NCBI GenBank assembly: GCA_963844965.1
Contig: CAWJQC010000001.1
Span: 1-48,809 of the forward strand
DNA: 48,809 nucleotides
Origin: an uncultured bacterium
GTDB lineage: Bacteria > Patescibacteriota > Minisyncoccia > UBA6257 > 2-01-FULL-56-20
Direction of reading: 5' to 3'
Position 1 is the first letter of the stretch. Every line of letters starts with the position of its first letter. The position numbers were made by a program, and so were the translations under genes. Positions 692 through 26,358 of the stretch are shown here, piece after piece. Under the pieces are notes generated by a model. The model searched no databases. It saw nothing but the letters and a program-made list of their open reading frames with translations, and had not been told where the DNA came from.

Positions 692-722
692 AAAACCCCC
701 GCCTTGCGCGGGGGCTTTGCGT
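692..722 (+). terminator. rho-independent terminator (CCCCCGC/GCGGGGG stem, then T-rich)
   Basis: AAAACCCCCGCCTTGCGCGGGGGCTTTGCGTTGC directly after the stop at 644. Confidence 0.6.
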
Positions 723-739: not shown

Positions 740-866
740 GTAATTCAATTGTAATTCGGTGGTAATAGTAATTAATAATTCAATGGTAATACGATTGTAA
801 TTCAGTGGTGATTCAATTCAGTGGTAATTCAGTTGTAATTCCATAGTAATTCAGTAGAATTGAGTA
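740..866. repeat. array of about 12 GTAATTC-type heptamers with 3-6 nt spacers, immediately upstream of the four-helix-bundle gene
   Basis: gtaattcaattgtaattcggtggtaat...gtaattcagtggtaattcagttgtaattcc read directly. Confidence 0.8.
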
Positions 867-1229
867 ATGAAACTCGACGATCTTGAAGTTTATAAACTGG
901 CCGGAGAAATTTCCGACGAGTCATGGTTGATTTACGAAAAGTTAAATTGGCGCGACAGGAAAATTATAGGAGATCAGTTTATCCGCGCCGTGGATTCTAT
1001 TGCCGCCAACATAGCTGAGGGCTTCGGCCGTTTTCATTACCTGGACAAAAATAAATTTAACTATAACGCACGCGGTTCGCTATTTGAATCAAAGCACTGG
1101 ACGAGTTCACTCTTTAAAAGGAATTTAATAACCAAGAAACAATTTGATTCCTTGGACCATAAACTTAATAATTTAGCCGTCAAACTAAACAACCTTATCG
1201 TTTCCACGCGGCGTCAATTGAGTAAATAA
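867..1229 (+). CDS. four-helix-bundle protein (TIGR02436-like; '23S rRNA intervening-sequence protein' family)
   Basis: 120 aa; motif IRAVDSIAANIAEGFGRFHYLDKNKFNYNARGSLFESKHW characteristic of this family. Confidence 0.75.
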   Translation: MKLDDLEVYKLAGEISDESWLIYEKLNWRDRKIIGDQFIRAVDSIAANIAEGFGRFHYLDKNKFNYNARGSLFESKHWTSSLFKRNLITKKQFDSLDHKLNNLAVKLNNLIVSTRRQLSK

Positions 1230-1292
1230 TTACCACAGAGTTACTATTACCATTGAATTACTACCGAATTACTACTGAATTACTTTATTACC
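1230..1292. repeat. inverse-orientation heptamer array (GAATTAC units), reverse complement of the 740-866 array
   Basis: ttaccattgaattactaccgaattactactgaattactttattacc; can pair with upstream array to form a long stem enclosing the ORF. Confidence 0.8.
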
Positions 1293-3623
1293 ATGTCCTC
1301 AAAGTCATTGCTTAGAATTATAAAAATTCTTATTTTCGTCGTTGTAATTGGAACGCCGTTTTTTTATGTAAAACAAACCGTTTTCCCCTTCACCATCTCC
1401 AAGATGGCTTTTTTTCAGTCGCTTGTGGAGTTTATATTTTTCCTTTGGCTTGCGCTCGTCCTCCCAAGTTTTGTCGGCAAAAATTTGGGAGGACGAGCGA
1501 TTTCCGACAAAAAATATCGCCCGCGCCGGACGCCGGCCCTTCTGGGTCTCGCGGCGTTTCTTGCCGTTTTGGTTTTCACGGCGGCTCTAGGCCTCGACCC
1601 TTGGCGCAGTTTCTGGTCAACATATGAGCGGACGTTCGGAGTTGTTACTTTTTTGCATTTAGGGGCACTGGCCCTTGTTCTTTCCGCGATTTGGTCGGAA
1701 ATTCCCTGGAAGAAACTTGCTTATTCTTCGATTGTGACCTGCGCGATCGTTGACATCATCGCCGCCTTGCAATTATGGAAGCCGGCCTTATTGCTCAATG
1801 AGGGTGCGATTAACAGAGCCGGCTCCACGTTTGATAATCCGTCGTTTCTGGCCGGTTACGTTTTGTTCCATGTTTTCCTTTGTCTCTATGTTCTATTTAC
1901 TTTGAAGAGAGGAGAGGATCTCCGAGCCGGTGGGCAGCGCTCGTCCAAGAATCTTTGGATAGGCATTGTTCTTTTTGTTATTCTCGTATTGAACGTCGTC
2001 ACCATTTTTATAACGCAGACGCGCGCAGCCATTTTGGCTTTGGTTGCCGGCTTTTTTGTTCTATTTTTGTTCTTTGCCTTTCGGCCGCCAGATAACGAAT
2101 GGCTGCCGGGTTTTTTGAAAAAAAAGTGGTTCTACGCCGCCGTCATCGCGGTCATCGTTTTGGGCGGCGCACTGTTTTGGTTCACGCGCGACAGCGCGGT
2201 TTGGGCGCAAGTTCCCGGACTCGGGAGATTCCGCAATATTTCCCTCACCGGCGGCGACACTTTGCCCAGAGTCATCGCCCTTAGCGCGGCTTGGCGCGGA
2301 TTTTTGGACAAGCCGTTCCTGGGTTGGGGATGGGAGAATTTCAATATTGTGTTCAATAAGTATTACGACCCGCGGTCTTTGGAGTTCAACTATGAAGAAA
2401 CGAGATTTGATAAGCCGCACAATTTTTTCATGGAATATTTGGTTGCCGGAGGCGTTCTCCTCGCGCTCGGATTTTTGGTTATGCTCGGCATTTTGATATA
2501 CGAGGCGCGGCGGCACAAAGAAAAACTTTTTTACCCGCTATTTTTGGCGGCGATTGTCGCCTACTTGGTCCAGAACCTGTTCCTTTTTGACACGCTCGGT
2601 CCGGCACTCATGTTTTTCGCGCTTTTCGGATACATGGACGGTTATTATGCCAAAAGCAGCGAGGAAAGGCCGGAAAAGGAAGCGCAAACACGGATACCGA
2701 CAAAGGTCAGCGGGCTTATGCTTGCGGTGTGCGCGCTTGTCGCTCTGGTTTTTGCGTATCAGTTTAATTTCCTGACCGTTGAGGCGTCTTATTATGAGTG
2801 GCGTGCTTTTAATGATTTTTTCGGAGGGAAACAGCAGAATGCCATAGAGGATTTCAAGACCACTTTGAGTATTTGGAGTCCGTATAGATGGAATTTCGGC
2901 AGGGATTTCGCCGCGAACGTTATAATGGCTTATTTTTACAATCAAGGCGCGGTGTCCGACAACGAGGCGCTTCTCGCTTTGAGCGCTATGGAAGAAGCGC
3001 GGGATGAGCATCCTCTTGATGCTTATAATCACTATGCGCTCGTTGACATGTACAATGAGGTTTCGGACATTGACATCGCAAAATACACGGCTTTAGCGGA
3101 GAAAGAAGCGGCAACGGCGCTCGCTTTGAGCCCGAACCGGCAGGAAGTTTATTTTTCTCTCGCGAAGACGAAACATATCGAGGGCGACGACAAGGCGGCA
3201 CTTGAACTCGCGAAGCGCGCCTTGGATTTGGACCCGAAGGTTCCCGACGCCCATTTCTACTACGGCGTGCTTCTGTTCTCGACTGGAGATCAAGCCGATG
3301 GCTATGCGGAAGTGAAGGAAGCGATCTCTTTGGGAAGAGAGTGGAAAAACTTTTACGAACCGAGAACGATTGCCGGATTTTTCGGCGATTTTGACCCTCC
3401 GAAACATTTGGATGAGGCTATAGACCTTTATAAAACGGCGCTTTCCATGCAACCTGACGATTTGGAAACGCAGATAAAACTCGGAGTTGCCTATTATTTC
3501 AAAAATGACTTTACCGACGCGCGCGATTACTTGAGTAAGGCGGCGACAAGATTCAACTTCAGAAGCAGTCCCGAGTTCGCCGAATTCAAGCCGATTCTGA
3601 ACCAGTTGGGAATAAATTATTAA
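1293..3623 (+). CDS. polytopic membrane protein, O-antigen ligase (Wzy_C)-like N-terminal domain plus C-terminal TPR repeats
   Basis: About 10 predicted TM helices, TQTRAAILALVAG ligase-like motif, C-terminal TPR-like helices (AYNHYALVDMYNE..., ALDLDPKVPDAHFYYGVLL...). Confidence 0.65.
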   Translation: MSSKSLLRIIKILIFVVVIGTPFFYVKQTVFPFTISKMAFFQSLVEFIFFLWLALVLPSFVGKNLGGRAISDKKYRPRRTPALLGLAAFLAVLVFTAALGLDPWRSFWSTYERTFGVVTFLHLGALALVLSAIWSEIPWKKLAYSSIVTCAIVDIIAALQLWKPALLLNEGAINRAGSTFDNPSFLAGYVLFHVFLCLYVLFTLKRGEDLRAGGQRSSKNLWIGIVLFVILVLNVVTIFITQTRAAILALVAGFFVLFLFFAFRPPDNEWLPGFLKKKWFYAAVIAVIVLGGALFWFTRDSAVWAQVPGLGRFRNISLTGGDTLPRVIALSAAWRGFLDKPFLGWGWENFNIVFNKYYDPRSLEFNYEETRFDKPHNFFMEYLVAGGVLLALGFLVMLGILIYEARRHKEKLFYPLFLAAIVAYLVQNLFLFDTLGPALMFFALFGYMDGYYAKSSEERPEKEAQTRIPTKVSGLMLAVCALVALVFAYQFNFLTVEASYYEWRAFNDFFGGKQQNAIEDFKTTLSIWSPYRWNFGRDFAANVIMAYFYNQGAVSDNEALLALSAMEEARDEHPLDAYNHYALVDMYNEVSDIDIAKYTALAEKEAATALALSPNRQEVYFSLAKTKHIEGDDKAALELAKRALDLDPKVPDAHFYYGVLLFSTGDQADGYAEVKEAISLGREWKNFYEPRTIAGFFGDFDPPKHLDEAIDLYKTALSMQPDDLETQIKLGVAYYFKNDFTDARDYLSKAATRFNFRSSPEFAEFKPILNQLGINY

Positions 3624-8822: not shown

Positions 8823-8850
8823 GTCCTGAGTTGTATTTTATTCCGCACGG

Positions 8851-8921
8851 AGCGGGATACCGGAATCGAACCGGCGCCATCACCTTGGCAAGGTGACGTA
8901 CTACCACTATACTAATCCCGC
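8851..8921 (-). tRNA. tRNA-Gly (anticodon GCC)
   Basis: Reverse complement GCGGGAT..GTATAGTGGTA..CACCT-TTGCCAA-AGGTG..GGTTCGATTCC..ATCCCGC-T; cloverleaf folds by hand; CCA not encoded. Confidence 0.8.
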
Positions 8922-8924: not shown

Positions 8925-9040
8925 TATCCAGAATCTAGAAATTAGAAAGTAGAGAATAGAATAAAGAAAACCAAGATTGAATTAGTTGACTTTCACCTTC
9001 TACTTTCTAGATTCCATTTTCTATTTTCTTGCTCTTTTCG
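8925..9040. repeat. AT-rich palindromic intergenic element (TAGAAAGTAGA / TCTACTTTCTA; AAATAGAAAATAGAA / TTCTATTTTC family)
   Basis: ctagaaattagaaagtagag ... ccttctactttctagattccattttctattttc; related copy at 28441-28560. Confidence 0.45.
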
Positions 9041-11935: not shown

Positions 11936-12073
11936 CTAATCCGACCCCCTTTCAAAGAGGAAATATAAGGCTTTGTGAAGAAAACTGCCCCCAGTGTACT
12001 CTAAATTAAGATATATGTCAAGTGCTATGGGCACTTGACTTTTTTAAACAGTATGTTATTATATAGGAATCTT

Positions 12074-15000
12074 ATGACTTATCAACACATTTACAAAGCC
12101 ATTTTGTCAAGGTTCACCGCTACACTATTCCTTGCGGCGCTTGCTGTGTTTTTGGGTTTTATCCCTGTTCACGCCGCGATTTACAATGCGAGCGGCCTCC
12201 TTGGACACATAGACCAAAGCGGAAATCCCATATACACGTCCGGCGGAATGAACAACGGACCGAACGCCAAGGGTTTGTATGTTCCGGCCGATACGGCACT
12301 CGATGCGGTAAATCACCGGCTTTTCGTGGTGGACACCAACAACGCCCGCGTTCTGGTTTTTTCTCTGACCTCTGCGGATGGCATTTCCTCCGTAACTCCT
12401 TCTTATGTGATAGGGCAAAGCGATTTCGTATCGGCTGACGCGGCGACCGTGTCGCAAAACCGGCTAGCGTATCCCGTAGGCCTCGCCTATGATTCCGCGA
12501 ACAGCCGGCTTTTCGTTTCCGATCAGGTTAATAACCGCGTCCTGGTGTTCAATGTCGCTCCGGGAACGATCGCGAACGGCGAGAACGCCTCTTATGTTCT
12601 TGGTCAAGGAAATTTTTCTTCTAACTCTGCCAACACGACCCAAAATGGTCTTAGTACTCCTTACGGACTTGCCTATGACGCCACAACGACGCGCCTTTTC
12701 GTTTCGGACCAGACGAACAACCGCGTTCTGGTGTTCAATGTGGCGGTTTCTTCCATGTCCAACGGAATGAACGCATCGTATGTCCTGGGGCAAGCTAATT
12801 TTACATCATCAGCCGCAGCCACTAAGAGCAGCGGCTTGAATACGCCGTATGGTGTCATGGTGGACGGCAATAGCCGCTTATTCGTCGCCGATAGCGGGAA
12901 CAACAGAGTTTTATATTATAGCGTTTCATCCATTACGAACGGCAAAGCGGCAACGAGGGTTTTGGGACAAGGAACTAGTTTTACCACATCGGCCGCGGCC
13001 ACGACACAATCTGGTCTTTCCGCTCCGCAAGGCCTGGCTTACGATTCCAAGTCCAACCGTCTTTTCGTCGCGGATGACGGCAACAACCGCATAATGGTGT
13101 TCTCCGTGGGAACGGGGAATTTCACGAGCGGGATGAATGCGTCATATGTTCTGGGACAGACTTCTTTTACTGCGGCCGCCGCCAATATTTCACAGAACGG
13201 CTTGAGCGCTCCATATGGTCTTGCCTATAGTTCCGCGAACAGCCGGCTTTTCGTCGCGGACCAAACGAACAGTCGCATTATGCTTTTTAACGCGGCTACC
13301 TCAACCATCTCTAACGGTGAAAACGCTTCCGGTTTGTTTGGCCACACGGACCAAAACGGGAATCCATTGTATACCATAGGCGAACCGAACAACGGCCCGA
13401 GCGCTCAGGGGTTTAATTATCCTTACGGAACCACGCTTGATGCCGTGAATCATCGTCTTTTTGTTTCCGATCAGACGAACAACCGCGTCCTGGTTTTTGC
13501 TTTGGATTCAAACAATAATATTTCAGCCACCACCGCCTCCTATGTTCTGGGTCAGAGCAGCTTCACTGGTTCGTCCCCGTCAACTTCACAGGGCGGTCTC
13601 AGCGCTCCACATGGTTTGGCATATGACGCGGCGAATAACCGTCTGTTCGTGTCCGATACCAGCAACAACCGCGTCCTGGTGTTCAATGTCGCTCCGGGAA
13701 CGATCGCGAACGGCGAGAACGCTTCGGTGGTTTTGGGACAATCTTCTTACACGACTTCGGATCCCGCCGTCACCCAGAACGGCCTCAATGCTCCCTATGG
13801 TCTTGTCTACGATCCGTCGAACGGCCGCCTCTTCGTAGCGGATAACAGTAACCAGCGCGTAATGGTCTTCAATACCATCGCGAACGGAGCGAACGCCGCT
13901 TTTGAGCTCGGTCAGAGCGACTTTGTGACATCCAATTCCGCCGCAAGCCAAAGCGGGCTCTCCGGCCCCGCCGACCTTGCTTATGACTCCTCAACGAGCC
14001 GCCTTTTCGTGGCCGATCAGATAAATAACCGCATCATGATTTTTAATGTTTCAACATCCACGATGGCGAACGGCAAAAATGCCGCGCACGTTTTGGGTCA
14101 GGCTGATTTCACGGCATCCAATGTCAACACAACCCAAGGGGGATTGAGCGGCCCTTACGGACTTGCGTACGACGCGACGAGAGGACAGCTCTACGTCGCG
14201 GACGTCAACAACAGCCGCATTCTCGTGTTCAACGCGATAGTTTCCGCGCTGGCCGACGGAGAGAATGCGTCAAACGTTTTGGGAACAGCGGATTTTGTCT
14301 CGGTTGGAGGCGGCACGTCGCAGAGTTCGGTCAATTCTGACAATTCGCTCGCAGATGATACCGCGAGTAACAGACTTTTTGCGGTAGACGGCCCCGATAA
14401 TCGCGTCACAGTCTTTTCATTGGTGAGGGTCAATGCTGCGTCCCTGCCCGGCGGCACGGTCGGGGCAGCTTATTCTGCGACAATCACGGCTTCGCAGTCG
14501 CAGGGAACGCTGAGCTTTGCAATCGCGAGCGGCAGTCTGCCGCCGGGACTTTCTCTGAACGCTTCTACGGGCGCGATATCGGGAGCGCCGACGGTCGCGA
14601 CAACGTCCGTCTTTGTGGTTGAGGCCGACGACGCATTCTCCACAGGCTCGTTCTTTGACCGCGCGACGTTCTCCATTACTGTTTCCGGGGGCGACACCAC
14701 TCCTCCTTCCGTCCCCACAGGACTCATGGCTACCGGAACGACCACTTCCACCATTTCCTTGTCCTGGACCGCTTCTACCGATTCCGGTGGCAGCGGACTT
14801 GCGGGATACAAGATATACAGGGACGGCACGCAGGTGGGAACCTCTACGGCTCCAAGCGCGACCTTCACCGACACCGCCCTTACAGCGTCCACGACCTACG
14901 CATATACGGTCAGTGCCTATGACAACGCCGGAAACGTTTCCGCGCAGTCATCGGCGATAAACGCCACGACCCAGTCTCTTTCCGACACGACGCCTCCCTC

Positions 15001-16621
15001 CGTACCGTCAGGACTTGCTGTTTCAACGACCACGTTGAGTTCGGTGTCGCTCACTTGGACCGCCTCTACGGACAATGTCGGTGTCACGGGATACGAGATC
15101 TACCGCAACGGCACGCAGACCGGAACTTCCACCTCGACCTCTTTCACAGATACCGGTCTTACGGCCTCAACTACATATTCCTATGCCGTCTCTGCCTATG
15201 ACGCAGCCGGCAACAACTCGGCAACCTCAACCTCTGTGAGCGCGACAACTTCGGCAGCGAGTAGCGGCGGTGACAGCGGCGGAGGTAGTGCTTCAACAAC
15301 TGTCACACTTTCTGCGATTACTGGGCCAACCGTCACGGTTGGAGACACTGCCGCCTTCACTGCAAACGCAACGGACTCTGATGCCAGCGGCACCGTTTCA
15401 TACGGCCTTACCGGCGCTCCTTCCGGTGCAACAATTGACGCATCATCTGGTGCGTTCTCGTGGAACACAACCGGAGTCACACCTGGCACATACACCTTCT
15501 CAGTGACTGCAACCGGCAGCACCGGTGGCTCTGATAGTAAGGACGTCTCAATTACGGTAAATGCGGCACCTGTGCCCGCGACGAGCACATTGAACGTTAC
15601 AGTGTTGGTTGACAATTCGCAGGGCGGCTTGGCAACCCCCTCCGACTTCACGGTCAGCGTTTATGCAAGCAATCCGAGCACATCCACCTTCCCGGGAAAC
15701 GCTTCAGGCACTACTGTGACCGTTGATGAGAATACTACCTACAGCGTGAATATTTCTTCGCTGAATGATTATTCTTCCGCTAATAACGGTAGTTGCGCTG
15801 GCACCACCGCGCCCGCCGGCAATTCAGTAAACTGTTCATTCACGGAAACATTCTTGCCCCTTATCTCACAACAGGGTTCGTCTAACCCGACCACTGATTC
15901 CATCACCGTAACCTGGACCACGGACCATCCGGCGACGAGCCGCGTGATCTACGACACCGTGTCGCATCCAACTTTGGGAGCGGCGCCGAACTACGGATAC
16001 GCCTATTCCACGGATGAGGACTCCACGCTTCTTACGAGCCACAGCGTGACTGTCTCCGGTCTTGCGGCTGGCACGACTTACTACTTCCGTGCTGTTTCCC
16101 ATGGCTCTCCCGAAACTGTAAGCGATGAATTCACCGGAACGACAACTTCGCCGGCGAGTAGCGGCGTGGGTAGTGCTACGGTCAGCGGCGGTGGCGGAGG
16201 GGGTGGAGGCGGCGGTGGTGGCGGAGGAGGAGGTGGTGGCGGAGGATATATTTCTCCTACCGAGCCAACCCAATCTCCGGCGTCAACTCAAAACGCCGCA
16301 GTGGACCCGAATGCCACACTCCGGTCTTTGCTGGAAAAGCTGCAAATCTTACTCGCACAACTGAACTCTAAATTGAAGTCGCAATTTACTCGCGATCTTA
16401 CCATAGGGTCGTCGGGAGATACCGTTCGCGTTCTTCAGACGTTCTTGAACATCAACGGTTATCCCATCGCCAGCACCGGTATCGGCTCTCCAGGCAACGA
16501 ATCCGCCTATTTCGGAGTGAAGACCGCCGCCGCTCTAGCTAAGTTCCAGGAGGTACACGGCCTTCCCCCAACCGGATACTTTGGCTCACTCACGAGGCAG
16601 ATAATAATGGGAATAAAGTAA
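12074..16621 (+). CDS. giant cell-surface protein: about 14 NHL repeats, Ig-like and Fn3 domains, 22-residue poly-Gly linker, C-terminal peptidoglycan-binding (PG_binding_1) domain. ORF track start 12035; ATG 12074 preferred because it follows a TGTTATTAT -10-like element and gives a signal peptide
   Basis: Repeated NNRVLVF(N/S) NHL motif; SLSWTASTD..GYKIYRDG Fn3; GDTVRVLQTFLNINGYPIASTG...LAKFQEVHGLPPTGYFG PG-binding. Confidence 0.7.
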   Translation: MTYQHIYKAILSRFTATLFLAALAVFLGFIPVHAAIYNASGLLGHIDQSGNPIYTSGGMNNGPNAKGLYVPADTALDAVNHRLFVVDTNNARVLVFSLTSADGISSVTPSYVIGQSDFVSADAATVSQNRLAYPVGLAYDSANSRLFVSDQVNNRVLVFNVAPGTIANGENASYVLGQGNFSSNSANTTQNGLSTPYGLAYDATTTRLFVSDQTNNRVLVFNVAVSSMSNGMNASYVLGQANFTSSAAATKSSGLNTPYGVMVDGNSRLFVADSGNNRVLYYSVSSITNGKAATRVLGQGTSFTTSAAATTQSGLSAPQGLAYDSKSNRLFVADDGNNRIMVFSVGTGNFTSGMNASYVLGQTSFTAAAANISQNGLSAPYGLAYSSANSRLFVADQTNSRIMLFNAATSTISNGENASGLFGHTDQNGNPLYTIGEPNNGPSAQGFNYPYGTTLDAVNHRLFVSDQTNNRVLVFALDSNNNISATTASYVLGQSSFTGSSPSTSQGGLSAPHGLAYDAANNRLFVSDTSNNRVLVFNVAPGTIANGENASVVLGQSSYTTSDPAVTQNGLNAPYGLVYDPSNGRLFVADNSNQRVMVFNTIANGANAAFELGQSDFVTSNSAASQSGLSGPADLAYDSSTSRLFVADQINNRIMIFNVSTSTMANGKNAAHVLGQADFTASNVNTTQGGLSGPYGLAYDATRGQLYVADVNNSRILVFNAIVSALADGENASNVLGTADFVSVGGGTSQSSVNSDNSLADDTASNRLFAVDGPDNRVTVFSLVRVNAASLPGGTVGAAYSATITASQSQGTLSFAIASGSLPPGLSLNASTGAISGAPTVATTSVFVVEADDAFSTGSFFDRATFSITVSGGDTTPPSVPTGLMATGTTTSTISLSWTASTDSGGSGLAGYKIYRDGTQVGTSTAPSATFTDTALTASTTYAYTVSAYDNAGNVSAQSSAINATTQSLSDTTPPSVPSGLAVSTTTLSSVSLTWTASTDNVGVTGYEIYRNGTQTGTSTSTSFTDTGLTASTTYSYAVSAYDAAGNNSATSTSVSATTSAASSGGDSGGGSASTTVTLSAITGPTVTVGDTAAFTANATDSDASGTVSYGLTGAPSGATIDASSGAFSWNTTGVTPGTYTFSVTATGSTGGSDSKDVSITVNAAPVPATSTLNVTVLVDNSQGGLATPSDFTVSVYASNPSTSTFPGNASGTTVTVDENTTYSVNISSLNDYSSANNGSCAGTTAPAGNSVNCSFTETFLPLISQQGSSNPTTDSITVTWTTDHPATSRVIYDTVSHPTLGAAPNYGYAYSTDEDSTLLTSHSVTVSGLAAGTTYYFRAVSHGSPETVSDEFTGTTTSPASSGVGSATVSGGGGGGGGGGGGGGGGGGGGYISPTEPTQSPASTQNAAVDPNATLRSLLEKLQILLAQLNSKLKSQFTRDLTIGSSGDTVRVLQTFLNINGYPIASTGIGSPGNESAYFGVKTAAALAKFQEVHGLPPTGYFGSLTRQIIMGIK

Positions 16622-18376: not shown

Positions 18377-19480
18377 ATGGACACCGCGAACATCTTCAAA
18401 ACCTTCAAATTTTTCAAACAGAGCGTTTTTCCCTCGTATCTCGGTGTTGATATCGGCACGACCTCCATAAAGGTTGTGGAGGTGAAGCCGGGCAAGCAAC
18501 TGCCGGAAGTTGTGAATTACGGATTTCTTGACTCAGGCGGCCAGCTCTCGCGCGCGAACCAAGCGTTGCAGACGAGCACGCTTAAACTTTTTGAGAAAGA
18601 AGCGGCAGAACTTCTGAAGTTGTTGGTTGGAGAAATGAAGACCAAAAGTACGGATGCCTTCGCGTCGCTGCCGACCTTTTCGGTTTTTATGACCGTTCTC
18701 GATTTCCCGGAAATGAAAGCCGGCGAGATAGAAAGGTCCATGGTGTTTCAGGCGAAACAATATATCCCCTCGCCGATCTCGGAAGTTGCGCTTGATTGGA
18801 TGAAGGTCGGTGAATATAAGGACGACAAGGGATTCACGCACCAGCAAATACTTTTGATATCCGTGCCGCAGGAAAGTATCAAGAAGTATCAGACGATCTT
18901 CAGGCTTGCCGGATTGAACTTGAAGGCGCTTGAGATTGAAAGTTTGAGCCTTACGAGAATTTTTGGAGGGACCGATCTCTCGCCGGCCATTGTGGCGGAT
19001 ATCGGCAGCCGCTCCACGAACATTATTTTTCTTGACAAAGGGCAGTTGAAATTCAACAAGCAGAGCGATTTTGCCGGAGCGTCGCTCACTCAGGCCCTCT
19101 CGGAGAGTTTGGGTATAAATTCGCTTCGCGCGGAAGAGCTGAAGAAGGAACGGGGGGTCGCGGGGACCGGTCCAAACTACGAGTTATCCACAATAATGAT
19201 GCCCCTTTTGGATGCTATAATTAACGAGATAAAGAAGGCGCGCTACAGTTACGGGGAACAGTTTCCTGGAGCGGCGAAGGCCGAAAGGTTGATCATTTCC
19301 GGCGGCAGCGCCAACCTCATTGGTGTTGAGAAATATTTTGAAAGAGAGTTTGGCCTGCCGGTTATAAAGGCAAATCCGTTCGCGAAGTTTGAGTATCCGC
19401 CGGCAATTGATTCAATGGTACCGGAACTCAATCCGATAATGAGCGTAGCGCTGGGACTGACGCTAAGAGAATTCATTTGA
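18377..19480 (+). CDS. pilM: type IV pilus assembly protein PilM (actin-like ATPase fold)
   Basis: 367 aa, YLGVDIGTTSIKVVEV and DIGSRSTNIIFLDKG motifs. Confidence 0.85.
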   Translation: MDTANIFKTFKFFKQSVFPSYLGVDIGTTSIKVVEVKPGKQLPEVVNYGFLDSGGQLSRANQALQTSTLKLFEKEAAELLKLLVGEMKTKSTDAFASLPTFSVFMTVLDFPEMKAGEIERSMVFQAKQYIPSPISEVALDWMKVGEYKDDKGFTHQQILLISVPQESIKKYQTIFRLAGLNLKALEIESLSLTRIFGGTDLSPAIVADIGSRSTNIIFLDKGQLKFNKQSDFAGASLTQALSESLGINSLRAEELKKERGVAGTGPNYELSTIMMPLLDAIINEIKKARYSYGEQFPGAAKAERLIISGGSANLIGVEKYFEREFGLPVIKANPFAKFEYPPAIDSMVPELNPIMSVALGLTLREFI

Positions 19481-19578
19481 AATTTCTAATTACCAATTTC
19501 TAATTTCTAAATAAATCCCAAATTACAATTTCCAAATTGTTTAGAAATTAGGTATTAGAAATTGGAAATTTAAAGTAC
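19481..19578. repeat. AT-rich intergenic palindromic element (AATTTCTAATT...CCAATTTCTAAATAAAT...TTGTTTAGAAATTAGGTATTAGAAATTGGAAATTT)
   Basis: Homologous to the element at 20841-20968. Confidence 0.5.
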
Positions 19579-20139
19579 ATGGCTCTTCCACAAAAAGTTA
19601 TTGAGCAACTTGGGCGCGAGCCGCCGAGAACGCCTGGCTGGTCAGGACAGCTTCTTATATTTTCAAGCACCGTTTTCGTGGTTTGCCTTTTCATATATCT
19701 CGGGCTTGTTTTCGGTTACCAGTCATATCTGCAGGATGGAGTTCAGAAACTTCAGGACCAAATCCAGCTTTTCAGTCAAAAAATTCCTACGGACGAGCAG
19801 GCGAAACTGGTCAGTTTTTATTCGCAAATCGCGAATTTGCGGTCATTGATCTCCAATCGTGTCATATCTTCGCGCGCCCTTGCCTGGCTTGAGAAGAACA
19901 CGCAAGCGAATTCTTACTTGGACAAATTCGGCCTGGACACCGCCGGTGCCAAGATGACCGTTGGCGTCAAATCCAAAACGATGGCGGATGCGTTGCAACA
20001 AATCGCCATATTTGAGAACCTGCCGGAGATTAAAAGCGTTGACATAGGCGGCATAAGCTTCAGCGAAAATTTGTGGCAGTTTGACGCGACCATTGTGCTC
20101 ACGCCCGGGTATTTCAATTATGGCAGCGGCAACCAGTAG
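19579..20139 (+). CDS. pilN: PilN-like pilus assembly protein (short cytoplasmic N-terminus, single TM, periplasmic domain)
   Basis: 186 aa, TM LLIFSSTVFVVCLFIYLGLVFGY; position directly after pilM. Confidence 0.5.
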   Translation: MALPQKVIEQLGREPPRTPGWSGQLLIFSSTVFVVCLFIYLGLVFGYQSYLQDGVQKLQDQIQLFSQKIPTDEQAKLVSFYSQIANLRSLISNRVISSRALAWLEKNTQANSYLDKFGLDTAGAKMTVGVKSKTMADALQQIAIFENLPEIKSVDIGGISFSENLWQFDATIVLTPGYFNYGSGNQ

Positions 20140-20198
20140 AAAAATTAAAAATTTCCCACAGCCTTTAATTTTTTGATGTTTAATCTTCAATTTGTTTC

Positions 20199-20840
20199 AT
20201 GAAGCAGACTACAAAAAGATTCTTAAGTATGATTTTGGGTCTGGTATTTCTCCTGTCCTCTTTACTTATGTATCTTGAGCTGATTCAGCCTGCCTACAGC
20301 AACGCTCAACAAACGAAAGCGCAGAAAAACAGCCTGCAGGTTTTTTTCGACAGCGAGGAAAAAGTCGTTGAACAGGTTGAGAAGCTGGCAAGTTCTTACG
20401 AAGGGGAAGGTGAGGTGCAGCAGGCGGTTTCCGAAGTTCTTCCGACGAGGATGGACATCGCCGGGGCGATAGCCCAACTCTACGGTCTTGCGCAAAACAA
20501 CAACTTGGCGGTGAAGTCTCTCGACCTGTCCACGGCGCCAGCCCCGCTTAAGAAAAATACGAACGCTAACCCGGGAACCACCCAGCTTTCGGGCTTTGAA
20601 ACTTCTTTGCAGAAAGGTGTCGGCACCGTATCTTTTGAATTACAATTGAGTGGGAGCTACGAAGACCTGAAAAATTTCCTGTCCGCCATTGAGACCAATG
20701 TCAGGATTTTTGACGTTGGACAGATCGAGGTCCAGCCCGTACCGGTCACCGTAGGTGTGGGCAAGGCCGGCAGCGCGAACGTGCCGCAAGACCTGTTTGA
20801 CTATAATTTTTCCCTGAAGACCTATTACCAAAGCCAATAA
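20199..20840 (+). CDS. pilO: PilO-like pilus assembly protein
   Basis: 213 aa, N-terminal TM and coiled-coil region; position in pilMNO order. Confidence 0.5.
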   Translation: MKQTTKRFLSMILGLVFLLSSLLMYLELIQPAYSNAQQTKAQKNSLQVFFDSEEKVVEQVEKLASSYEGEGEVQQAVSEVLPTRMDIAGAIAQLYGLAQNNNLAVKSLDLSTAPAPLKKNTNANPGTTQLSGFETSLQKGVGTVSFELQLSGSYEDLKNFLSAIETNVRIFDVGQIEVQPVPVTVGVGKAGSANVPQDLFDYNFSLKTYYQSQ

Positions 20841-20968
20841 TAATGAAAATTTCTAATTTCTAATATCCAATTTCTAAATAAATTTTAATATCCCAAATCA
20901 CAAAATTTATAATTTTAGCCATTAAGATTTTGATATTGTTTAGAAATTAGGATTTAGAAATTGGAAAT
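20841..20968. repeat. second copy of the AT-rich intergenic palindromic element
   Basis: aatttctaatttctaatatccaatttctaaataaat...ttgtttagaaattaggatttagaaattggaaattt. Confidence 0.5.
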
Positions 20969-21268
20969 TTGATAACCATGGCCATAGTCATTGAGGAGGA
21001 AAAAAACAGAATCAGTCCAATCAGCATCGCCACTTGGCTTGTGGTGCTTATCATTATCGGCCTCGCCGCTTACTATATCTTTTTCACACAGCCGGAGCTT
21101 ATTGAAGTTGCGGCCCCGTCCAATTTCCAGAACATTGACCCATTGTCAAAAATTAATCTTAATCCCGAAGATGTGGTAAACGGTTCGGGTTTCCAGTCCC
21201 TGAAGCCCACAATAACGTTGCCGGTGCCCGGCAACGCCGGAAGGGACAACCCGTTTCTGGCGCGATAA
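20969..21268 (+). CDS. small single-TM protein inside the pil operon (possible PilP-like)
   Basis: 99 aa, TM WLVVLIIIGLAAYYIFF; no recognisable family. Confidence 0.4.
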   Translation: MITMAIVIEEEKNRISPISIATWLVVLIIIGLAAYYIFFTQPELIEVAAPSNFQNIDPLSKINLNPEDVVNGSGFQSLKPTITLPVPGNAGRDNPFLAR

Positions 21269-21337
21269 GTATTGCGAAGTGCAAGGCGCGAATCGCGAAT
21301 CGGCTTGCGCCCAGCAGTCAATAATTTACACACTCAA

Positions 21338-23029
21338 ATGTCCAACGACGAACTGTTAAAACAAATACGAAAAGCGAAACTTTTGGACGAGGATGCGGTG
21401 GCCAAGCTCAGACGCGATTCGCTCCTGTCCGGCCAATCAGTTGAAAGTTTGATTTCCAATCGCCGGCTCATTGACGACGTGAAGCTCGCCACACTCAAGA
21501 GTTCGCTCCTCAACGTTCCTTATAAGAAAGTAAACGCTGGAGCTGTTGACAGCGGTCTTTTTGGGGTAATTTCCGAAGAGACGGCCAGAACTTACGGAGT
21601 CGCGCCGATTGAAGAGAGGGGAGACATGCTTGTCGTCGGGATGCTGCAGCCGGATGACGCCAAGGCGCAGGAAGCGCTCAAGTTCATTGGAGGGCAACAC
21701 CACCTGAACCTTGGGGTTTACTTGGTCTCTTACGGCGATTGGCAGGACGTTTTGAGGAGATACTCGCCCTATCGTTCGGAGGTTGAAAGAGCCGTAAGCT
21801 CTTTGAATTTGAAACCCGGAGGGAGCGGGCAGAAAATTGTCAGTCTTGACGAGGTCGGTGTCAGTGAAGACGCGCCGATTATAAAAATCGTAGCCGATAC
21901 TCTTAAGGAGGCCGTATCGGTGAGAGCTTCTGATATCCACGTTGAGCCCCAGGAAAATTATTTGCGTATCAGGTTCAGGGTTGACGGCAACCTGCGCGAG
22001 GAAGCGGCTCTTCCCGTTGAACTTTCCCAGCCAGTGGTCTCACGGATCAAGGTTATTTCCAGTTTGAAGATCGACGAGTCGCGAATTCCGCAGGACGGTC
22101 GTTTCCGGACGAAGGTTTTTGATAAATATATTGATTTCCGCGTTTCAACTTTTCCAACGCCGCTCGGTGAAAAAGTCGCAGTGCGCGTTTTGGATCCCGC
22201 GAGCGGCCTAAAGAGTTTTGAAGAGCTCGATCTTTTGTATGGCAATTTGGACAAGGTCAAAAAAGGTTTGGACAAGCCGTATGGCATGATCTTGGTCACC
22301 GGCCCAACTGGTTCCGGCAAAACAACGACGCTTTACGCTATGCTGCAGCTCTTGAACAAGGAAAATGTGAATATCGTGAGCTTGGAGGACCCGGTGGAAT
22401 ATTTTGTTTCCGGCGTCAACCAGTCTCAGGTACGTCCGGAGATAGGTTACGATTTCGCCTCGGGATTGCGGCAAATTTTGCGCCAGGATCCCGATACCAT
22501 CATGGTCGGCGAGATCAGAGACAACGAAACCGCGGGACTCGCGATACAATCAGCATTGACCGGCCACCTCGTCCTTTCCACCCTGCACACGAACAATTCG
22601 GCGGGCGTCATACCACGGCTCATAGATATGAAAGTTGAACCGTTCCTTTTGCCGGTTTCACTGAACCTTATGTTGTCGCAAAGGTTGGTGGGTTCGCTTT
22701 GCGAGAGTTGTAAAGCGGCGGAGACCGCGTCTCCGGATGTGGAAAAATTGATTAAGAGAGCTCTGGACGAACTGCCTCCGAACATCAGTTCAAAATACGG
22801 CTCGCCGTACAAAATTTTCCACAGCAAGGGCTGCCCAAAATGCAGGGGGCGGGGCGTTGTCGGCCGCACCGCGCTTTACGAAGTGTTGGAAATGACGCCC
22901 GGGCTTGAAGAGGTCATAATGAATGGGCCGACGGCACAAAAGGTTTTGAAGGAAGCGAAAAGCCAGGGGATGGTGAGCTCTGCGGCAGGACGGCGTTCTC
23001 AAAGCCCTGGACGGCAGAGTTTCAATTGA
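21338..23029 (+). CDS. pilB: type IV pilus assembly ATPase PilB (GspE family); true C-terminus DGVLKALDGRVSIEEVIRETEEI lies in the +1 frame ending at 23060, so there is an apparent 1-nt indel near 22976-22983
   Basis: N-terminal T2SE_Nter region, Walker A LVTGPTGSGKTTT, Walker B and Asp box (DPDTIMVGEIRD), His box (GHLVLSTLHTN), CxxC...CPKCRG zinc motif; start chosen at ATG 21338 (MSNDELLKQIRKAK). Confidence 0.85.
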   Translation: MSNDELLKQIRKAKLLDEDAVAKLRRDSLLSGQSVESLISNRRLIDDVKLATLKSSLLNVPYKKVNAGAVDSGLFGVISEETARTYGVAPIEERGDMLVVGMLQPDDAKAQEALKFIGGQHHLNLGVYLVSYGDWQDVLRRYSPYRSEVERAVSSLNLKPGGSGQKIVSLDEVGVSEDAPIIKIVADTLKEAVSVRASDIHVEPQENYLRIRFRVDGNLREEAALPVELSQPVVSRIKVISSLKIDESRIPQDGRFRTKVFDKYIDFRVSTFPTPLGEKVAVRVLDPASGLKSFEELDLLYGNLDKVKKGLDKPYGMILVTGPTGSGKTTTLYAMLQLLNKENVNIVSLEDPVEYFVSGVNQSQVRPEIGYDFASGLRQILRQDPDTIMVGEIRDNETAGLAIQSALTGHLVLSTLHTNNSAGVIPRLIDMKVEPFLLPVSLNLMLSQRLVGSLCESCKAAETASPDVEKLIKRALDELPPNISSKYGSPYKIFHSKGCPKCRGRGVVGRTALYEVLEMTPGLEEVIMNGPTAQKVLKEAKSQGMVSSAAGRRSQSPGRQSFN

Positions 23030-23107
23030 AGAAGTTATCAGGGAAACGGAAGAGATATAATATGGTAAAATTAAAAATGAAAGATTAAAAATAAAATTTT
23101 TTAATCT

Positions 23108-24208
23108 TTGGTATTTGATATTTTATTTTTTATCGTGGATAACTACAAAGAAAAACTCAGGGACCTTTTGGTGACGACGGCCAGGCAAAACGCCTCAGAT
23201 TTGCATTTGGCGGTTGGGCGTCGGCCAACGTTGCGTTTGGACGGAGTTCTCGTGCCGTTGCAGAAAGAGCCGATAACGACGCCGGAGGTGGCGGAGGGGC
23301 TGATCGGCGGACTGCTTACGCCGGAGCTTAAGGAAAAATTTCTCCGGGACAAGCAAGTTGACTTCGCTTACGGCCTTGAGGACAAGGCCCGATTTCGTGT
23401 GAATGTCTTTATGCAGAGAGGGTATCTTGCTGCCGCTTTGCGTCTGATTCCCGCAAGGATAAGGACAATTGAAGAACTTGGCTTGCCGCCGATTCTGCAT
23501 GATTTCACGAGATTGTCGCAAGGATTCATTCTGGCCGTGGGTCCCGCTGGACATGGCAAATCGTCAACCCTGGCTGCGATTCTGGATGAAATTAATCACA
23601 CAAGGTCCGACCACATTATCACCATTGAAGACCCGATTGAATATTTATTCACTCAGGACAGGTGCATTGTCTCACAAAGGGAAGTGGGAAACGACACGCC
23701 CACGTTCCACTCCGCCCTGCGCACGGTTTTGCGCCAGGACCCCGACGTAATCATGGTGGGCGAGATGCGCGATGCCGTTTCAATTTCCACGGCGATGACG
23801 GCCGCGGAAACCGGCCACCTCGTCTTTTCAACGCTCCACACCAATTCCGCCGCCCAGACGGTAGATCGCATCATTGATTCTTTCCCTTCCGGCCAGCAGG
23901 GCCAGGTCATATCGCAGCTTGCGGCCACTTTGGTTGCCATTGTTTCCGAGCGGCTTCTGCCGCGTGTTTCCGGCGGACGCGTTCCCGCGATGGAAATCAT
24001 GCTCGTGAACCCGGCGATCAGAAATCTCATACGTGAGAGGAAAATTTACCAGATAGATCTTGTGATTGAAACAAGTATGCAGGAAGGAATGGTGACCCTG
24101 AACCGTTCGCTCGTTAATCTTATAAAGAACAAGGAAGTTTCGCTTGAGAACGCAGAGCTTTACTCGCTGAATCCCGCCGAACTCCGGGTGCTTTTGGAAC
24201 GAATCTAA
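23108..24208 (+). CDS. pilT: twitching-motility ATPase PilT
   Basis: Walker A AVGPAGHGKSSTLAA, DPDVIMVGEMRD, GHLVFSTLHTN; 366 aa. Confidence 0.85.
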   Translation: MVFDILFFIVDNYKEKLRDLLVTTARQNASDLHLAVGRRPTLRLDGVLVPLQKEPITTPEVAEGLIGGLLTPELKEKFLRDKQVDFAYGLEDKARFRVNVFMQRGYLAAALRLIPARIRTIEELGLPPILHDFTRLSQGFILAVGPAGHGKSSTLAAILDEINHTRSDHIITIEDPIEYLFTQDRCIVSQREVGNDTPTFHSALRTVLRQDPDVIMVGEMRDAVSISTAMTAAETGHLVFSTLHTNSAAQTVDRIIDSFPSGQQGQVISQLAATLVAIVSERLLPRVSGGRVPAMEIMLVNPAIRNLIRERKIYQIDLVIETSMQEGMVTLNRSLVNLIKNKEVSLENAELYSLNPAELRVLLERI

Positions 24209-24303
24209 TTACTCAATTATGCGATTAACGAACTGCGGATTGACGGATCGGATTCATTCGTTAATTCGTTGATGCGTTAATCCTTTAATTTCGGATTTAA
24301 ATA

Positions 24304-25524
24304 ATGAAGTTTAAATACCAAGCGAAAACAAAAAGCGGGGAGATGCAGGTTGGCTACGTGGAGGCGGGAAATCGCGACGCCGCAGCGAACATCCTCGCCG
24401 GACACGAGCTTTTCATTCTGAGCTTGGAATCGGCAGAGAAGGGGGGTTTTCTGGAGAACATCACAAGTTATTTTGGCCGCGTGAAGCGGAAGGATATGAT
24501 TATCTTCACGCGGCAGCTTGCAACGCTTCTTGAGGCGCGCCTGCCGCTGAGCACCGCCCTTAAGACCCTTGAGGGCCAGATGAAGCAGTCGGTTTTGAAA
24601 GAAGCGGTAAGACAAATTGGCGAAGACATAGACGCCGGCTTGTCTTTTTCCCAGGCGATGGAGCGCCAAGGCAAGGTTTTCCCGGCGTTTTACATTGAAA
24701 TGGTTAAGGCGGCGGAGGTTACGGGCAACATGAACGAAATTGCCGGCTTTTTGGCGGATTATGCGGAAAGGGAGGGTGAATTACTGAGCAAGGCGGCGTC
24801 GGCGATGATCTACCCGGGGATAGTGGTCGGACTTTTCCTTGTGGTTCTTTTGATCATGGTGGTTTATGTCTTCCCGCAACTTTTGCCGATCTTTCAACAA
24901 TCCAACGTGCAGCTTCCCATATACACGCAAATTCTCCTGGGTTTCGGGACCTTCCTTGCCAAGTGGTGGTTCGCTGTTCTTATAGTTCTGGCTTTTCTCG
25001 CCGCCCTGGTTTTCGATTACGCGCGTACGCCGGAAGGAGAGGCGTTGATCGACGATTTCAAAATAAAACTGCCTCTTTTAAAAAGAGTATTTATGCCGAT
25101 TACTCTGGCGAGGTTTTCCAACGCTGCCGCGCTTTTGATACACGGCGGGATTCCCATCGCCCAGACATTGGAAATTATCGGCCACATGGTGGGAAATGTT
25201 CTCTATAAGGACGTCATGCACGATGTCGCCGCGGATGTCCGCCAGGGCGAGCTTCTCTCGCAAAGCATAGGAAAATACCCGGAATACTTTCCGCCTCTCG
25301 TCACGCAAATGATCTCGGTCGGAGAAACGACCGGAAAGATAGAACAGATTTTCAGCCGCCTGTCGTTGTTCTACAGCCGCGAAGCCGATTCCGTTATGAA
25401 CAATTTGGTTGATTTGATCCAGCCGCTTATGATGGTCGTTATAGGCGTGATGGTGGGCTTTCTCTTTGCCTCAATTTTGATACCGCTTTACAGCCTGACG
25501 GCGAACATGGGAAGCGGCGGGTAA
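24304..25524 (+). CDS. pilC: type IV pilus platform protein PilC (GspF family)
   Basis: 406 aa, two T2SSF repeats, three TM segments. Confidence 0.85.
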   Translation: MKFKYQAKTKSGEMQVGYVEAGNRDAAANILAGHELFILSLESAEKGGFLENITSYFGRVKRKDMIIFTRQLATLLEARLPLSTALKTLEGQMKQSVLKEAVRQIGEDIDAGLSFSQAMERQGKVFPAFYIEMVKAAEVTGNMNEIAGFLADYAEREGELLSKAASAMIYPGIVVGLFLVVLLIMVVYVFPQLLPIFQQSNVQLPIYTQILLGFGTFLAKWWFAVLIVLAFLAALVFDYARTPEGEALIDDFKIKLPLLKRVFMPITLARFSNAAALLIHGGIPIAQTLEIIGHMVGNVLYKDVMHDVAADVRQGELLSQSIGKYPEYFPPLVTQMISVGETTGKIEQIFSRLSLFYSREADSVMNNLVDLIQPLMMVVIGVMVGFLFASILIPLYSLTANMGSGG

Positions 25525-25563
25525 GGCGGGACTCGCGCCGTTTGCGCTCTCAGCGCGTCGATA

Positions 25564-25572
25564 TGGTATAAT
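25564..25572 (+). promoter_or_regulatory. extended -10 promoter TGGTATAAT upstream of the first pilin gene
   Basis: TGnTATAAT read directly. Confidence 0.45.
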
Positions 25573-25650
25573 TTAAGGGTATGATTCAAGTGAAACCGGC
25601 TCACTCTACTCATGGCCGGAGAAAGGTCGGGAATTAAACCGAAAAAACTT

Positions 25651-26154
25651 ATGGCAATGTTAAGAACTAGGAAAGGATTCACTTTGATAGAAATATTGAC
25701 CGTGGTGGCAATTATCGCTATTTTGGCGTCCATCATATTGGTCGGTTTGTCTTCTGCCCGGACATCGGCCCGCGACGCGCGGAGAATCGCCGACTTGGAT
25801 CAGATACGGACGGCGATGGAGCTTTACTTCAATAAGGTGGGTCATTATCCGACCGATTGTTCTGCGGTGAATGCAAATAGCGTCACTTGGTCAACGATCC
25901 AGGGCGACTTGACTGGCGCTGGTATTGGCGTGACCACGGTTGCCGATGATCCGCTGGCTAATCCAGCTAGTCCGCAAACTAGCGTGCATTATGGGTATTC
26001 TCCTACGACAACCGGTGGGTATGATCTTAGTGCGGTACTGGAAGTTTCCGGCAACTCTGCTCTGAACACTTCTATAAAGGGGAATCCCCCCCCGAATGCG
26101 CCGGCTAACTGTAGTCTGAGTTGCAACGGCCAGAATTACTGCATAGGCATGTAG
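25651..26154 (+). CDS. pilA: type IV pilin (probable major pilin), prepilin leader MAMLRTRKG|FTLIE
   Basis: Class III signal peptide, G-1, F+1, E+5, hydrophobic alpha-1 helix TVVAIIAILASIILVGL; own promoter and downstream hairpin. The upstream ATG at 25612 is rejected because an in-frame stop intervenes. Confidence 0.8.
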   Translation: MAMLRTRKGFTLIEILTVVAIIAILASIILVGLSSARTSARDARRIADLDQIRTAMELYFNKVGHYPTDCSAVNANSVTWSTIQGDLTGAGIGVTTVADDPLANPASPQTSVHYGYSPTTTGGYDLSAVLEVSGNSALNTSIKGNPPPNAPANCSLSCNGQNYCIGM

Positions 26155-26207
26155 GAAAAATACGCATCAAGTCCGGTGCGTTTATCCCTGGTTTTTTTGT
26201 GTGTGTT

Positions 26208-26240
26208 CGCCGAACCTCCGATTTTAGCCGGAGGTTCGAT
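26208..26240 (+). terminator. hairpin (CGAACCTCCG-ATTTTAG-CCGGAGGTTCG) after pilin 1, possible terminator or attenuator
   Basis: 10-bp perfect stem read directly; the downstream T-tract is weak. Confidence 0.35.
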
Positions 26241-26293
26241 GTTTTCGGCGGATCATGTTTGACGCGCGCTTGCGGGCAGGTTGAACGGCGGTT

Positions 26294-26302
26294 TGCTATA
26301 AT
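26294..26302 (+). promoter_or_regulatory. extended -10 promoter TGCTATAAT upstream of the second pilin gene
   Basis: TGnTATAAT read directly. Confidence 0.45.
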
Positions 26303-26358
26303 AAAGCATATATCAAGAAAGGTCGAGCTTGGAGTTAGACACACAATCTGCGACACAA

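Follow-up and report, generated by a model that had tools for sequence, protein, structure and literature searches.

Positions 740 to 1,292 of a 48,809-nucleotide (nt) contig from an uncultured member of the Patescibacteria (CAWJQC010000001.1; the whole contig is called the window below) hold a small gene for a four-helix-bundle protein, of the family classically encoded in 23S rRNA intervening sequences (IVSs), between two tandem-repeat arrays that are reverse complements of each other. Established here are the protein family, the inverted arrays, a layout conserved in Patescibacteria and cyanobacteria with units specific to each locus, the orientation of the arrays with respect to the strand of the gene, and occupied, empty and alternative states of the site. 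On balance we favor the view that 740–1292 is one copy of a widespread insertable small-gene cassette, which would be looped out of the transcript and cut by RNase III by way of a stem formed by the two arrays.

The initial annotation of this DNA, made from the sequence alone, had assigned the small gene to the TIGR02436-type four-helix-bundle proteins, and profile scores and predicted fold both bear this out. The 120-residue product scores 77.1 bits against TIGR02436 (cut-off 24) and 81.8 bits against PF05635 (23S_rRNA_IVP; cut-off 33.8), and an alignment of 33 homologues has 28 invariant columns. A monomeric AlphaFold (AF2) model based on 33 homologues contains four helices, with a predicted local distance difference test (pLDDT) value of 91. 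The top structural match found by Foldseek was the stand-alone S23p-family protein XCC0516 (2GSC, template modelling (TM) scores 0.88/0.94); BT_0352 (2RLD, TM 0.80/0.86) also matched the model, and a profile search against PDB sequences likewise retrieved 2RLD and 2GSC. Next in rank were Avd from the Bordetella phage retroelement (4DWL, TM 0.80) and a diversity-generating retroelement (DGR) ribonucleoprotein (8UB7). The protein is a true member of the TIGR02436/PF05635 family. An exact-sequence look-up returned no record of it, and a PADLOC scan for defense systems matched nothing for the small gene. The family is large, with 4,569 clusters at 50% identity matched by the profile of this subfamily alone, and to our knowledge it has no known function.

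The arrays abut the gene closely. The upstream array (Table 1) comprises 6 exact and about 4 degenerate units in 127 nt and ends at the ATG of the open reading frame (ORF), while the downstream array comprises 3 exact and 3–4 degenerate units in 64 nt, begins within the stop codon and stops at the ATG of the following gene. About 12 upstream GTAATTC heptamers had originally been counted; the arrays are real, although the upstream count falls to about 10 units, 6 of them exact, and the repeat is not a contiguous heptamer run, since its period is 11 nt (a heptamer core plus a 4-nt spacer). The window contains 16 copies of GTAATTC, compared with 6.5 expected from shuffling. Nine of these lie between 740 and 1283, within the 553-nt locus; six precede the ORF on the + strand, and three follow it on the − strand. 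GTAATTC arrays are confined to this locus within the window, and other arrays in the window are built of other units.

The proposed reverse complementarity of the two arrays was upheld. Arms at 815–850 and 1246–1281 (36 nt) are 86% complementary, those at 773–791 and 1245–1263 are 95% complementary, and the complementarity of the arrays extends to their variable spacers. When the region was folded with RNAfold (700–1310), as had been suggested, the two arrays paired with each other (z = −3.2). The partition function gave about 51 expected pairs joining the arrays, and in this ensemble the downstream array was 80% paired with units 1–7 of the upstream array. Because the arrays are of unequal length, only the distal seven upstream units pair, so that the predicted stem is about 50 bp long with mismatches; a stem is retained, but not the length of about 60 bp first attributed to it. 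A control fold in which the downstream array was reversed still paired, since the units are rich in AATT, and this control is not discriminating.

Recurrence of the layout and states of the site

Homologues 41–72% identical to the window protein are encoded in a sample of 80 metagenomic loci. Read by eye, nearly every gene has a tandem array before its ATG and the reverse complement of that array after its stop codon. The units are specific to the locus and include GTAATA/TATTAC, GAGATAA/TTATCTC, GAAATTG/CAATTTC, GAAACTT/AAGTTTC, GTAATGA/TCATTAC and others, alongside GTAATTC in the window. In the 65 loci with both flanks, alignment of the upstream flank with the reverse complement of its own downstream flank gave a median score of 15; against the downstream flanks of other loci the median was 8 and the 95th percentile 14, a value exceeded by 57% of own pairs. 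A search of related genomes for the same heptamer-flanked cassette had been put forward as a check. The array-boxed layout does recur in most of the 65 loci, but with units that differ from one locus to the next.

Arrays with periods of 6–12 nt make up 24% of the 130 nt that border the genes on each side, and 2.2% of the sequence elsewhere in the loci. Their periods are 7, 8, 10 or 11 nt and their typical span is about 38 nt (roughly 4–5 units), the median gap being 17 nt between array and ATG, 6 nt between stop codon and array, and 5 nt between downstream array and next ORF. The layout is also polar. C is scarce in upstream arrays (6.6%, against 20.6% G) and G in downstream ones (5.6%, against 20.6% C), and an excess of G over C in the 60 nt upstream combined with an excess of C over G in the 60 nt downstream was found for 55 of 69 genes as opposed to 50 of 224 control ORFs (22%). 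The RNA duplex was more stable for the sense strand in 41 loci and for the antisense strand in 23 (Wilcoxon p = 0.003), with 613 G-U pairs in sense and 427 in antisense. Between the window and locus L008, whose protein is 72% identical, nucleotide similarity reaches into the arrays and the neighbors differ. Rfam detected no rRNA in nine homologue loci.

One metagenomic locus, L095, carries two divergent four-helix-bundle cassettes (1282–1656 and 3001–3393) that alternate with genes of unknown function encoding proteins of about 400 residues. They lie downstream of a Laminin_G_3 surface protein, and the first has reversed polarity, with a pyrimidine-type array upstream. Dispersal of the cassette unit in the manner of repetitive extragenic palindromic (REP) sequences and their RAYT proteins was considered and set aside: of 152 arrays located elsewhere in the loci, 22 have the same unit as the four-helix-bundle cassette nearby, a weak excess over the 13.8 expected.

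The site occupied in the window can be followed in relatives. The gene order around it (upstream gene, terminator, Wzy_C/TPR gene, HU, two genes, sigma factor) is preserved throughout L117–L122, the close relatives, and the upstream gene, terminator and Wzy_C/TPR gene are still recognizable in the more distant loci L001–L004 and L006. The slot is empty in L117, whose ligase is 72% identical, in L120–L122 (56%), and in L001–L004 and L006 (36–48%). Counted as distinct relatives, 7 lack the cassette at this site and 2 others carry a different boxed gene there. In L118 (723–1127; ligase 69%) and L119 (160–564; ligase 67%) it holds a 134-residue GxxExxY/PDDEXK_3 gene (TIGR04256, about 102 bits) boxed by inverted 10–11-nt arrays of its own, GCTGATTTAT before and ATAAATCAGC after. 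Because the same slot accommodates a GxxExxY gene with different arrays, the window site is, on this comparison, a hotspot for different boxed small genes.

GxxExxY genes are accompanied by arrays in other loci as well. In L033 complementary tandem units lie on both sides of the gene, and in L056 and L015 there is a tandem upstream array, the downstream flank of L015 running off the contig. Boxed cargo beyond the four-helix-bundle gene is confirmed for GxxExxY only, and possibly includes an AbiE pair in L010. Other candidates (window 19579–20840, L029 and L061) were rejected, as they are better explained as genes between neighboring hairpins or cassettes that share a unit. L012 was rejected as an orthologous site, since all that it shares is a remote homologue of Wzy_C (38% identity).

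The ends of the insert could be located in cyanobacteria. A tblastn search of plasmids with the Patescibacteria protein gave three weak matches, and a cyanobacterial query was then used. Among 12 cyanobacterial plasmid four-helix-bundle genes, 8 were clearly boxed, 2 partly and 2 not. In the boxed genes a purine-rich tandem array runs up to the ATG, and a complementary, pyrimidine-rich one follows the stop codon, with units such as AGTCAGG/CCTGACT, GGAGATA/TATCTCC and GGGAAAA/TTTTCCC. Several of these cassettes are internal to operons, including cas10/four-helix-bundle/cmr3 (L106, 398–754) and cas6/four-helix-bundle/cas4 (L108, 392–760). Boxed cassettes within CRISPR-Cas operons may explain the statistical association of 23S_rRNA_IVP with CRISPR loci (PMC10910872).

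Nostoc plasmids with flanks that are about 90% identical provide both an empty and an occupied site. The empty site reads ...TTCTAG-G-TTATG..., where one gene stops and its neighbor starts; in the occupied site the G is replaced by a 418-nt unit running from ATCAGGAGTCAGG... to ...CTTCTGGATTCTGA. This type of cassette is also found in Aulosira, Trichormus and Scytonema, where it is 82–84% identical over the ORF and arrays only and has other neighbors. In Picosynechococcus PCC 7003 a cassette lies between cas10 and cmr3 with its right junction exactly at the cmr3 ATG, and in PCC 7002 the site is empty. The comparison of occupied and empty sites places the insert ends at the outer ends of the arrays and, as read from these alignments, shows that gene and arrays behave as one insert. 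The junctions had no consistent target-site duplication, and no recombinase or transposase was found. In Nostoc, the host DNA on the left of the insert (TTCAGGTTCTAG) is similar to the 3′ end of the insert itself (TTCTGGATTCTGA); nothing comparable was seen in the other contexts.

Neighborhood and further repeats of the window

The window comes from a genome of the Patescibacteria (candidate phyla radiation) with a G+C content of 51%, and the closest matches of the gene neighboring the cassette are in Liptonbacteria-like metagenome-assembled genomes. Features follow one another in the order partial upstream ORF, terminator-like hairpin, cassette, Wzy_C/TPR protein, HU, two unknown genes and a sigma-70 family factor; a type IV pilus cluster (18377–29841) and LigA lie farther along. 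Of the two neighbors named in the initial annotation, a surface-protein gene and an O-antigen ligase gene, only the second is borne out by a domain match: the downstream product (776 residues) matches Pfam Wzy_C at 67.5 bits together with TPR families, whereas the partial upstream ORF has no Pfam match. The accompanying statement that the window is free of rRNA agrees with an Rfam scan, which detected three tRNAs only.

Table 1. Positions of the cassette and of associated features in the window
Feature	Position	Strand	Evidence
Intrinsic-terminator-like hairpin ending the upstream gene; left boundary of the intergenic slot in which the cassette lies	696–714	+	7 G-C pairs, T-rich tail
Upstream array, about 10 units of 11 nt (GTAATTC + 4 nt), G > C	740–866	+	Tandem Repeats Finder (TRF) period 11, exact counts, pairing probabilities
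Promoter-like TTGTAA-N16-TAGAAT within the last upstream-array units	833–860	+	Consensus scan, 9/12 matches
Four-helix-bundle protein gene (S23p / 23S_rRNA_IVP / Avd-like), 120 aa	867–1229	+	Profiles, homologue alignment, AF2 model, Foldseek
Downstream array, about 6 units of the reverse complement (GAATTAC + 4 nt), C > G	1229–1292	+	TRF periods 11 and 17
Host gene, Wzy_C (O-antigen-ligase-like) membrane protein with C-terminal TPR repeats	1293–3623	+	Pfam
Gene-less inverted array pair TAGAAAA / TTCTAyy adjoining tRNA-Gly	8936–9029	.	TRF; fold z = −2.6 (+), −3.4 (−)
Gene-less hairpin, AATTTCT array + AGAAATT array, between pilM and the next gene	19481–19575	.	31-bp stem, z = −4.9
Second copy of the pilus-operon gene-less hairpin, after pilO	20846–20972	.	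z = −4.7, alignment, self-BLAST

A terminator equivalent to that at 696–714 follows the homologous upstream gene in L001–L004, L006 and L117–L120. At the 3′ end of the upstream array, window 832–868 aligns with the ligase-gene leader of L117, the closest relative that lacks the cassette, at 26 of 37 positions (score 15, compared with a shuffle maximum of 14), and that leader has the same promoter-like motif as window 833–860. Window 833–860 probably belongs natively to the Wzy_C gene, as its promoter and leader. The upstream array may have grown from the native promoter region, or L117 may carry a footprint: its sequence TTGTAATTTGGCGATAATTCGGTAGAAT would be either the ancestral promoter or the trace of an excision. 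The Wzy_C/TPR coding sequence itself contains a 47-nt palindrome that is 85% self-complementary (1453–1499).

Inverted array pairs that enclose no gene occur elsewhere in the window (Table 1). The hairpins at 19481–19575 and 20846–20972 are homologous copies of one element in the pilus operon, placed among pilM, pilN/pilO and the following gene and each ending just before an ATG. In L095, the sequences that flank a four-helix-bundle gene (1241–1703) are almost the same as the arms of these hairpins. The pair at 8936–9029 lies next to a tRNA-Gly gene on the − strand (8849–8921) and has its purine-type array first, a polarity opposite to that of the pilus hairpins. We infer from these arms and arrays that the gene-less hairpins look like empty versions of the cassette.

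Other repeats in the window are of several kinds. Unpaired or weakly paired arrays (ATTCGTTA, AGAAAAT and ATCCTAA, at 24256–24290, 28454–28487 and 39549–39583) lie directly before start codons of pilus and surface-protein genes and resemble heptamer repeats that precede start codons in other phyla. The NAD-dependent DNA ligase gene (40910–42997) contains in-frame tandem arrays, CAATTTC in 2–3 copies (42552–42587) and GTCAAAG in 4 copies (42747–42773), which map to the HhH domain or its immediate vicinity and to the linker that precedes the BRCT domain. Four head-to-tail 32-nt G+C-rich units resembling terminator hairpins (GTCAACCCCCGCCTTTTCGGAAAAAGACGGGG) are located at 47423–47552, with partial or related copies at 45936–45966 and 48270–48344. 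The 3′ end of a tRNA-Asp gene (44875–44950) is repeated 174 nt downstream (44916–44953 and 45090–45127; 38 nt, 95% identical) and could be an integration-site remnant. Internal repeats at 36721–38367 and 12473–14271 (66–85% identity) lie inside the very large ORFs 34958–39430 and 12035–16621, respectively; such diverged long repeats are typical of repetitive surface proteins.

Possible action of the arrays and rival explanations

In the window the cassette occupies a short stretch of leader, with the upstream gene's terminator on its left and the Wzy_C/TPR start codon on its right. In the proposed mechanism, read-through transcription of the cassette would allow the two arrays to pair. As both arrays are tandem, pairing would be possible in several registers. 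The resulting stem of about 50 bp would loop the ORF out of the host transcript in the manner of the terminal repeats of S23p-bearing 23S rRNA IVSs, and a double-strand-specific RNase (RNase III) could cut it. The cut would separate cassette RNA from host-gene RNA and set the level of protein made. Looping-out and cleavage at the RNA level would explain the tolerance of inserts in operons and rRNA. The units vary between loci, while the tandem structure, complementarity, polarity and tight abutment to the gene are kept, which argues for a role based on structure over one as a sequence-specific binding site. That the arrays are oriented with respect to the gene, and that the sense strand has a modest advantage, both point to the transcript as the level at which they act.

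Several observations weigh against this proposal. The RNA stem and its cleavage are carried over by analogy from the IVS of Coxiella burnetii. The advantage of the sense strand is modest, and strand-biased mutation could account for it. The two arrays of the window are unequal, the upstream one having twice the length of its partner, and the near-identical loci L027 and L028 differ in copy number on one side only. GxxExxY genes are boxed in this manner as well, so that the four-helix-bundle gene is not the only cargo. The terminator at 696–714 lies just 5′ of the cassette, and transcription from 833–860 would begin at about the ATG of the small gene, yielding an RNA that lacks upstream-array units 1–8. 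Neither a consistent target-site duplication nor a recombinase was found. Finally, two homologue proteins present as identical copies (P0034 and P0020), one seen on 20 contigs and the other on 11, each always have the same neighbors, a confinement to one context that gives no sign of recent transposition in Patescibacteria and makes mobility, if any, slow or old. The IVS-like cassette, mobile or processed, that the initial annotation proposed is supported as regards insert behavior, given the occupied, empty and alternative states of its site, and not as regards recent transposition in this phylum.

The promoter-like site is the objection that keeps a role at the DNA level a serious rival, although we consider it unlikely that such a role is the whole explanation. 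Here the arrays would be the long terminal inverted repeats of a non-autonomous element resembling foldback elements or miniature inverted-repeat transposable elements (MITEs), serving recombination or transposition by way of a trans-acting enzyme or of hairpin extrusion, with RNA pairing as a by-product. Ends of the insert at the outer array ends favor this explanation, as do the recurrence of the same cassette in different cyanobacterial contexts, the window/L008 similarity that extends into the arrays between different neighbors, the gene-less hairpins with the same arms that occur twice in the window and resemble the L095 flanks, and the two unrelated cargo genes with the same kind of box at the same site. 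The units, however, differ between cassettes whose proteins are 60–70% identical, a poor fit to a sequence-specific transposase; the strong polarity to the gene strand and the excess of sense G-U pairs would not be expected of symmetric ends; and no consistent target-site duplication, no transposase and no identical copies in new contexts were found.

Rather less probable is the explanation that the arrays are cis-regulatory repeats. The upstream array would supply promoter, UP-element or ribosome-loading sites and the downstream array the leader of the next gene, or else the protein, as a putative pentameric ring, would bind the units in a TRAP-like manner for self-regulation. Heptamer direct repeats are indeed found a few nt before start codons that have no canonical ribosome-binding site (RBS) in Beggiatoaceae, cyanobacteria and Bacteroidetes (PMC4679880). 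The promoter-like site falls within the upstream array, GGAG is abundant in cyanobacterial upstream arrays, and unpaired arrays stand directly before other start codons in the window (24256–24290 and 39549–39583). Avd, the closest characterized structural relative, is a nucleic-acid-binding pentamer, and a typical array has roughly 4–5 units in its 38 nt or so. This explanation nevertheless leaves the locus-by-locus reverse complementarity of covarying units unaccounted for, GxxExxY cassettes have the same box without the four-helix-bundle protein, and arrays elsewhere in a locus share the cassette unit only slightly more often than expected.

That the gene encodes the Avd accessory protein of a DGR, with the repeats as part of that element, was ruled out as very improbable. 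DGRs are common in Patescibacteria and the fold is like those of Avd and the DGR ribonucleoprotein, but Pfam detected no reverse transcriptase among the 40 large ORFs of the 48.8-kb window, self-BLAST revealed no template/variable repeat pair near the gene, PADLOC gave no match, and the closest structures are stand-alone S23p proteins and not Avd. That an ordinary small gene is surrounded here by AT-rich, low-complexity sequence arisen by chance is scarcely credible. Other short-period arrays are present in the window, but 9 of its 16 GTAATTC copies are concentrated at this locus, pointing in opposite directions before and after the ORF, the spacers are complementary too, and the layout recurs in most of the 65 homologue loci.

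Relation to known systems

A search of the full-text literature returned no description of boxed four-helix-bundle or GxxExxY cassettes; its coverage did not extend to most subscription journals, and an earlier description is possible. Our results suggest that the array-boxed insertable gene cassette is a widespread and apparently undescribed type. A broader proposition can be put forward tentatively, as possible but doubtful when all of its parts are taken jointly: boxed four-helix-bundle (S23p) and GxxExxY genes might together make up an unrecognized class of insertable "intervening" element, found in Patescibacteria, in cyanobacteria and probably in further phyla. Such cassettes would land at gene starts, in operons and in rRNA hairpin loops, and would persist there because their arrays fold them out of the host RNA. 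The 23S rRNA IVS would then be a special case and the gene-less hairpins non-autonomous derivatives, and the protein, as a putative ring, may bind its own array.

The origin and purpose of rRNA IVSs have been in question since 1990, and a common DNA layout, with complementary tandem arrays, cassette-specific units, fixed polarity and defined ends, would tie them to the stand-alone copies. Being recognizable, the layout also provides a search rule for such cassettes and makes direct tests possible, including tests of protein binding to the arrays; RNase III mutants and transcript-end maps exist for some cyanobacteria with occupied or empty sites. For annotation, it matters that the arrays overlap promoters, leaders and stop codons of neighboring genes, cas operons included.

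REP/REPIN sequences with a RAYT gene, MITEs and foldback elements are the natural DNA-level systems for comparison. They have in common with the cassette a single gene between inverted short repeats, dispersed gene-less hairpins and, in foldback elements, terminal repeats made of tandem subunits; as in MITEs and foldback elements, terminal inverted repeats delimit a unit that varies in presence and absence. The cassette differs from them in lacking transposase homology and a unit conserved across copies, and in the polarization of its arrays to the gene; no consistent target-site duplication was seen at its junctions. Nor are there near-identical copies in several contexts as for MITEs, since the window has one copy and the cyanobacterial copies are only 82–84% identical.

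Cyanobacterial short tandemly repeated repetitive (STRR) sequences are comparable short tandem repeats. In Beggiatoaceae, cyanobacteria and Bacteroidetes, TAACTGA heptamers are directly repeated in the intergenic DNA that precedes start codons (PMC4679880). Like these repeats, the arrays described here consist of short tandem intergenic units that end a few nt from an ATG with no canonical RBS, in phyla rich in four-helix-bundle genes. TAACTGA and STRR repeats, however, are described as direct, with one unit per genome and with no partner array or boxed gene reported, whereas the cassette has complementary arrays with units of its own, and arrays within the window use different units in place of one dominant genome-wide unit.

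At the level of the protein, Avd shares the four-helix-bundle fold with the window protein and is a nucleic-acid-binding pentamer, but the two are only 12–14% identical in sequence, and the window lacks the reverse transcriptase and repeat pair of a DGR. The GxxExxY (TIGR04256/PDDEXK_3) genes of L118 and L119 share the site and the possession of inverted arrays, although the fold of their product, which is like that of PD-(D/E)XK nucleases, is unrelated.

The closest parallel is the S23p-encoding IVS. In Coxiella burnetii, a 428-nt element in helix 45 of 23S rRNA carries an S23p ORF in the loop of a 28-bp stem of terminal inverted repeats that is cut by RNase III, and 3–4 tandem GACAGAT heptamers, in a number that varies between strains, directly precede the S23p start codon; S23p-encoding IVSs are also known in Leptospira 23S rRNA (PMC4990558). 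The window copy is not in a 23S rRNA gene (helix 25 or 45), the location that defines an IVS: its flanks are protein-coding and it lies in the leader of a protein-coding gene. Its stem would consist wholly of 11-nt tandem units, and that stem is predicted, whereas RNase III cutting has been demonstrated in Coxiella. In other respects the two agree. Both encode the same protein family from an ORF in a loop closed by terminal inverted repeats that form a long stem, a predicted fold in the case of the window, and both have tandem repeats directly before the start codon (740–866 in the window, GACAGAT in Coxiella), with variable copy number, a poor Shine-Dalgarno sequence and a unit of about 430–550 nt.

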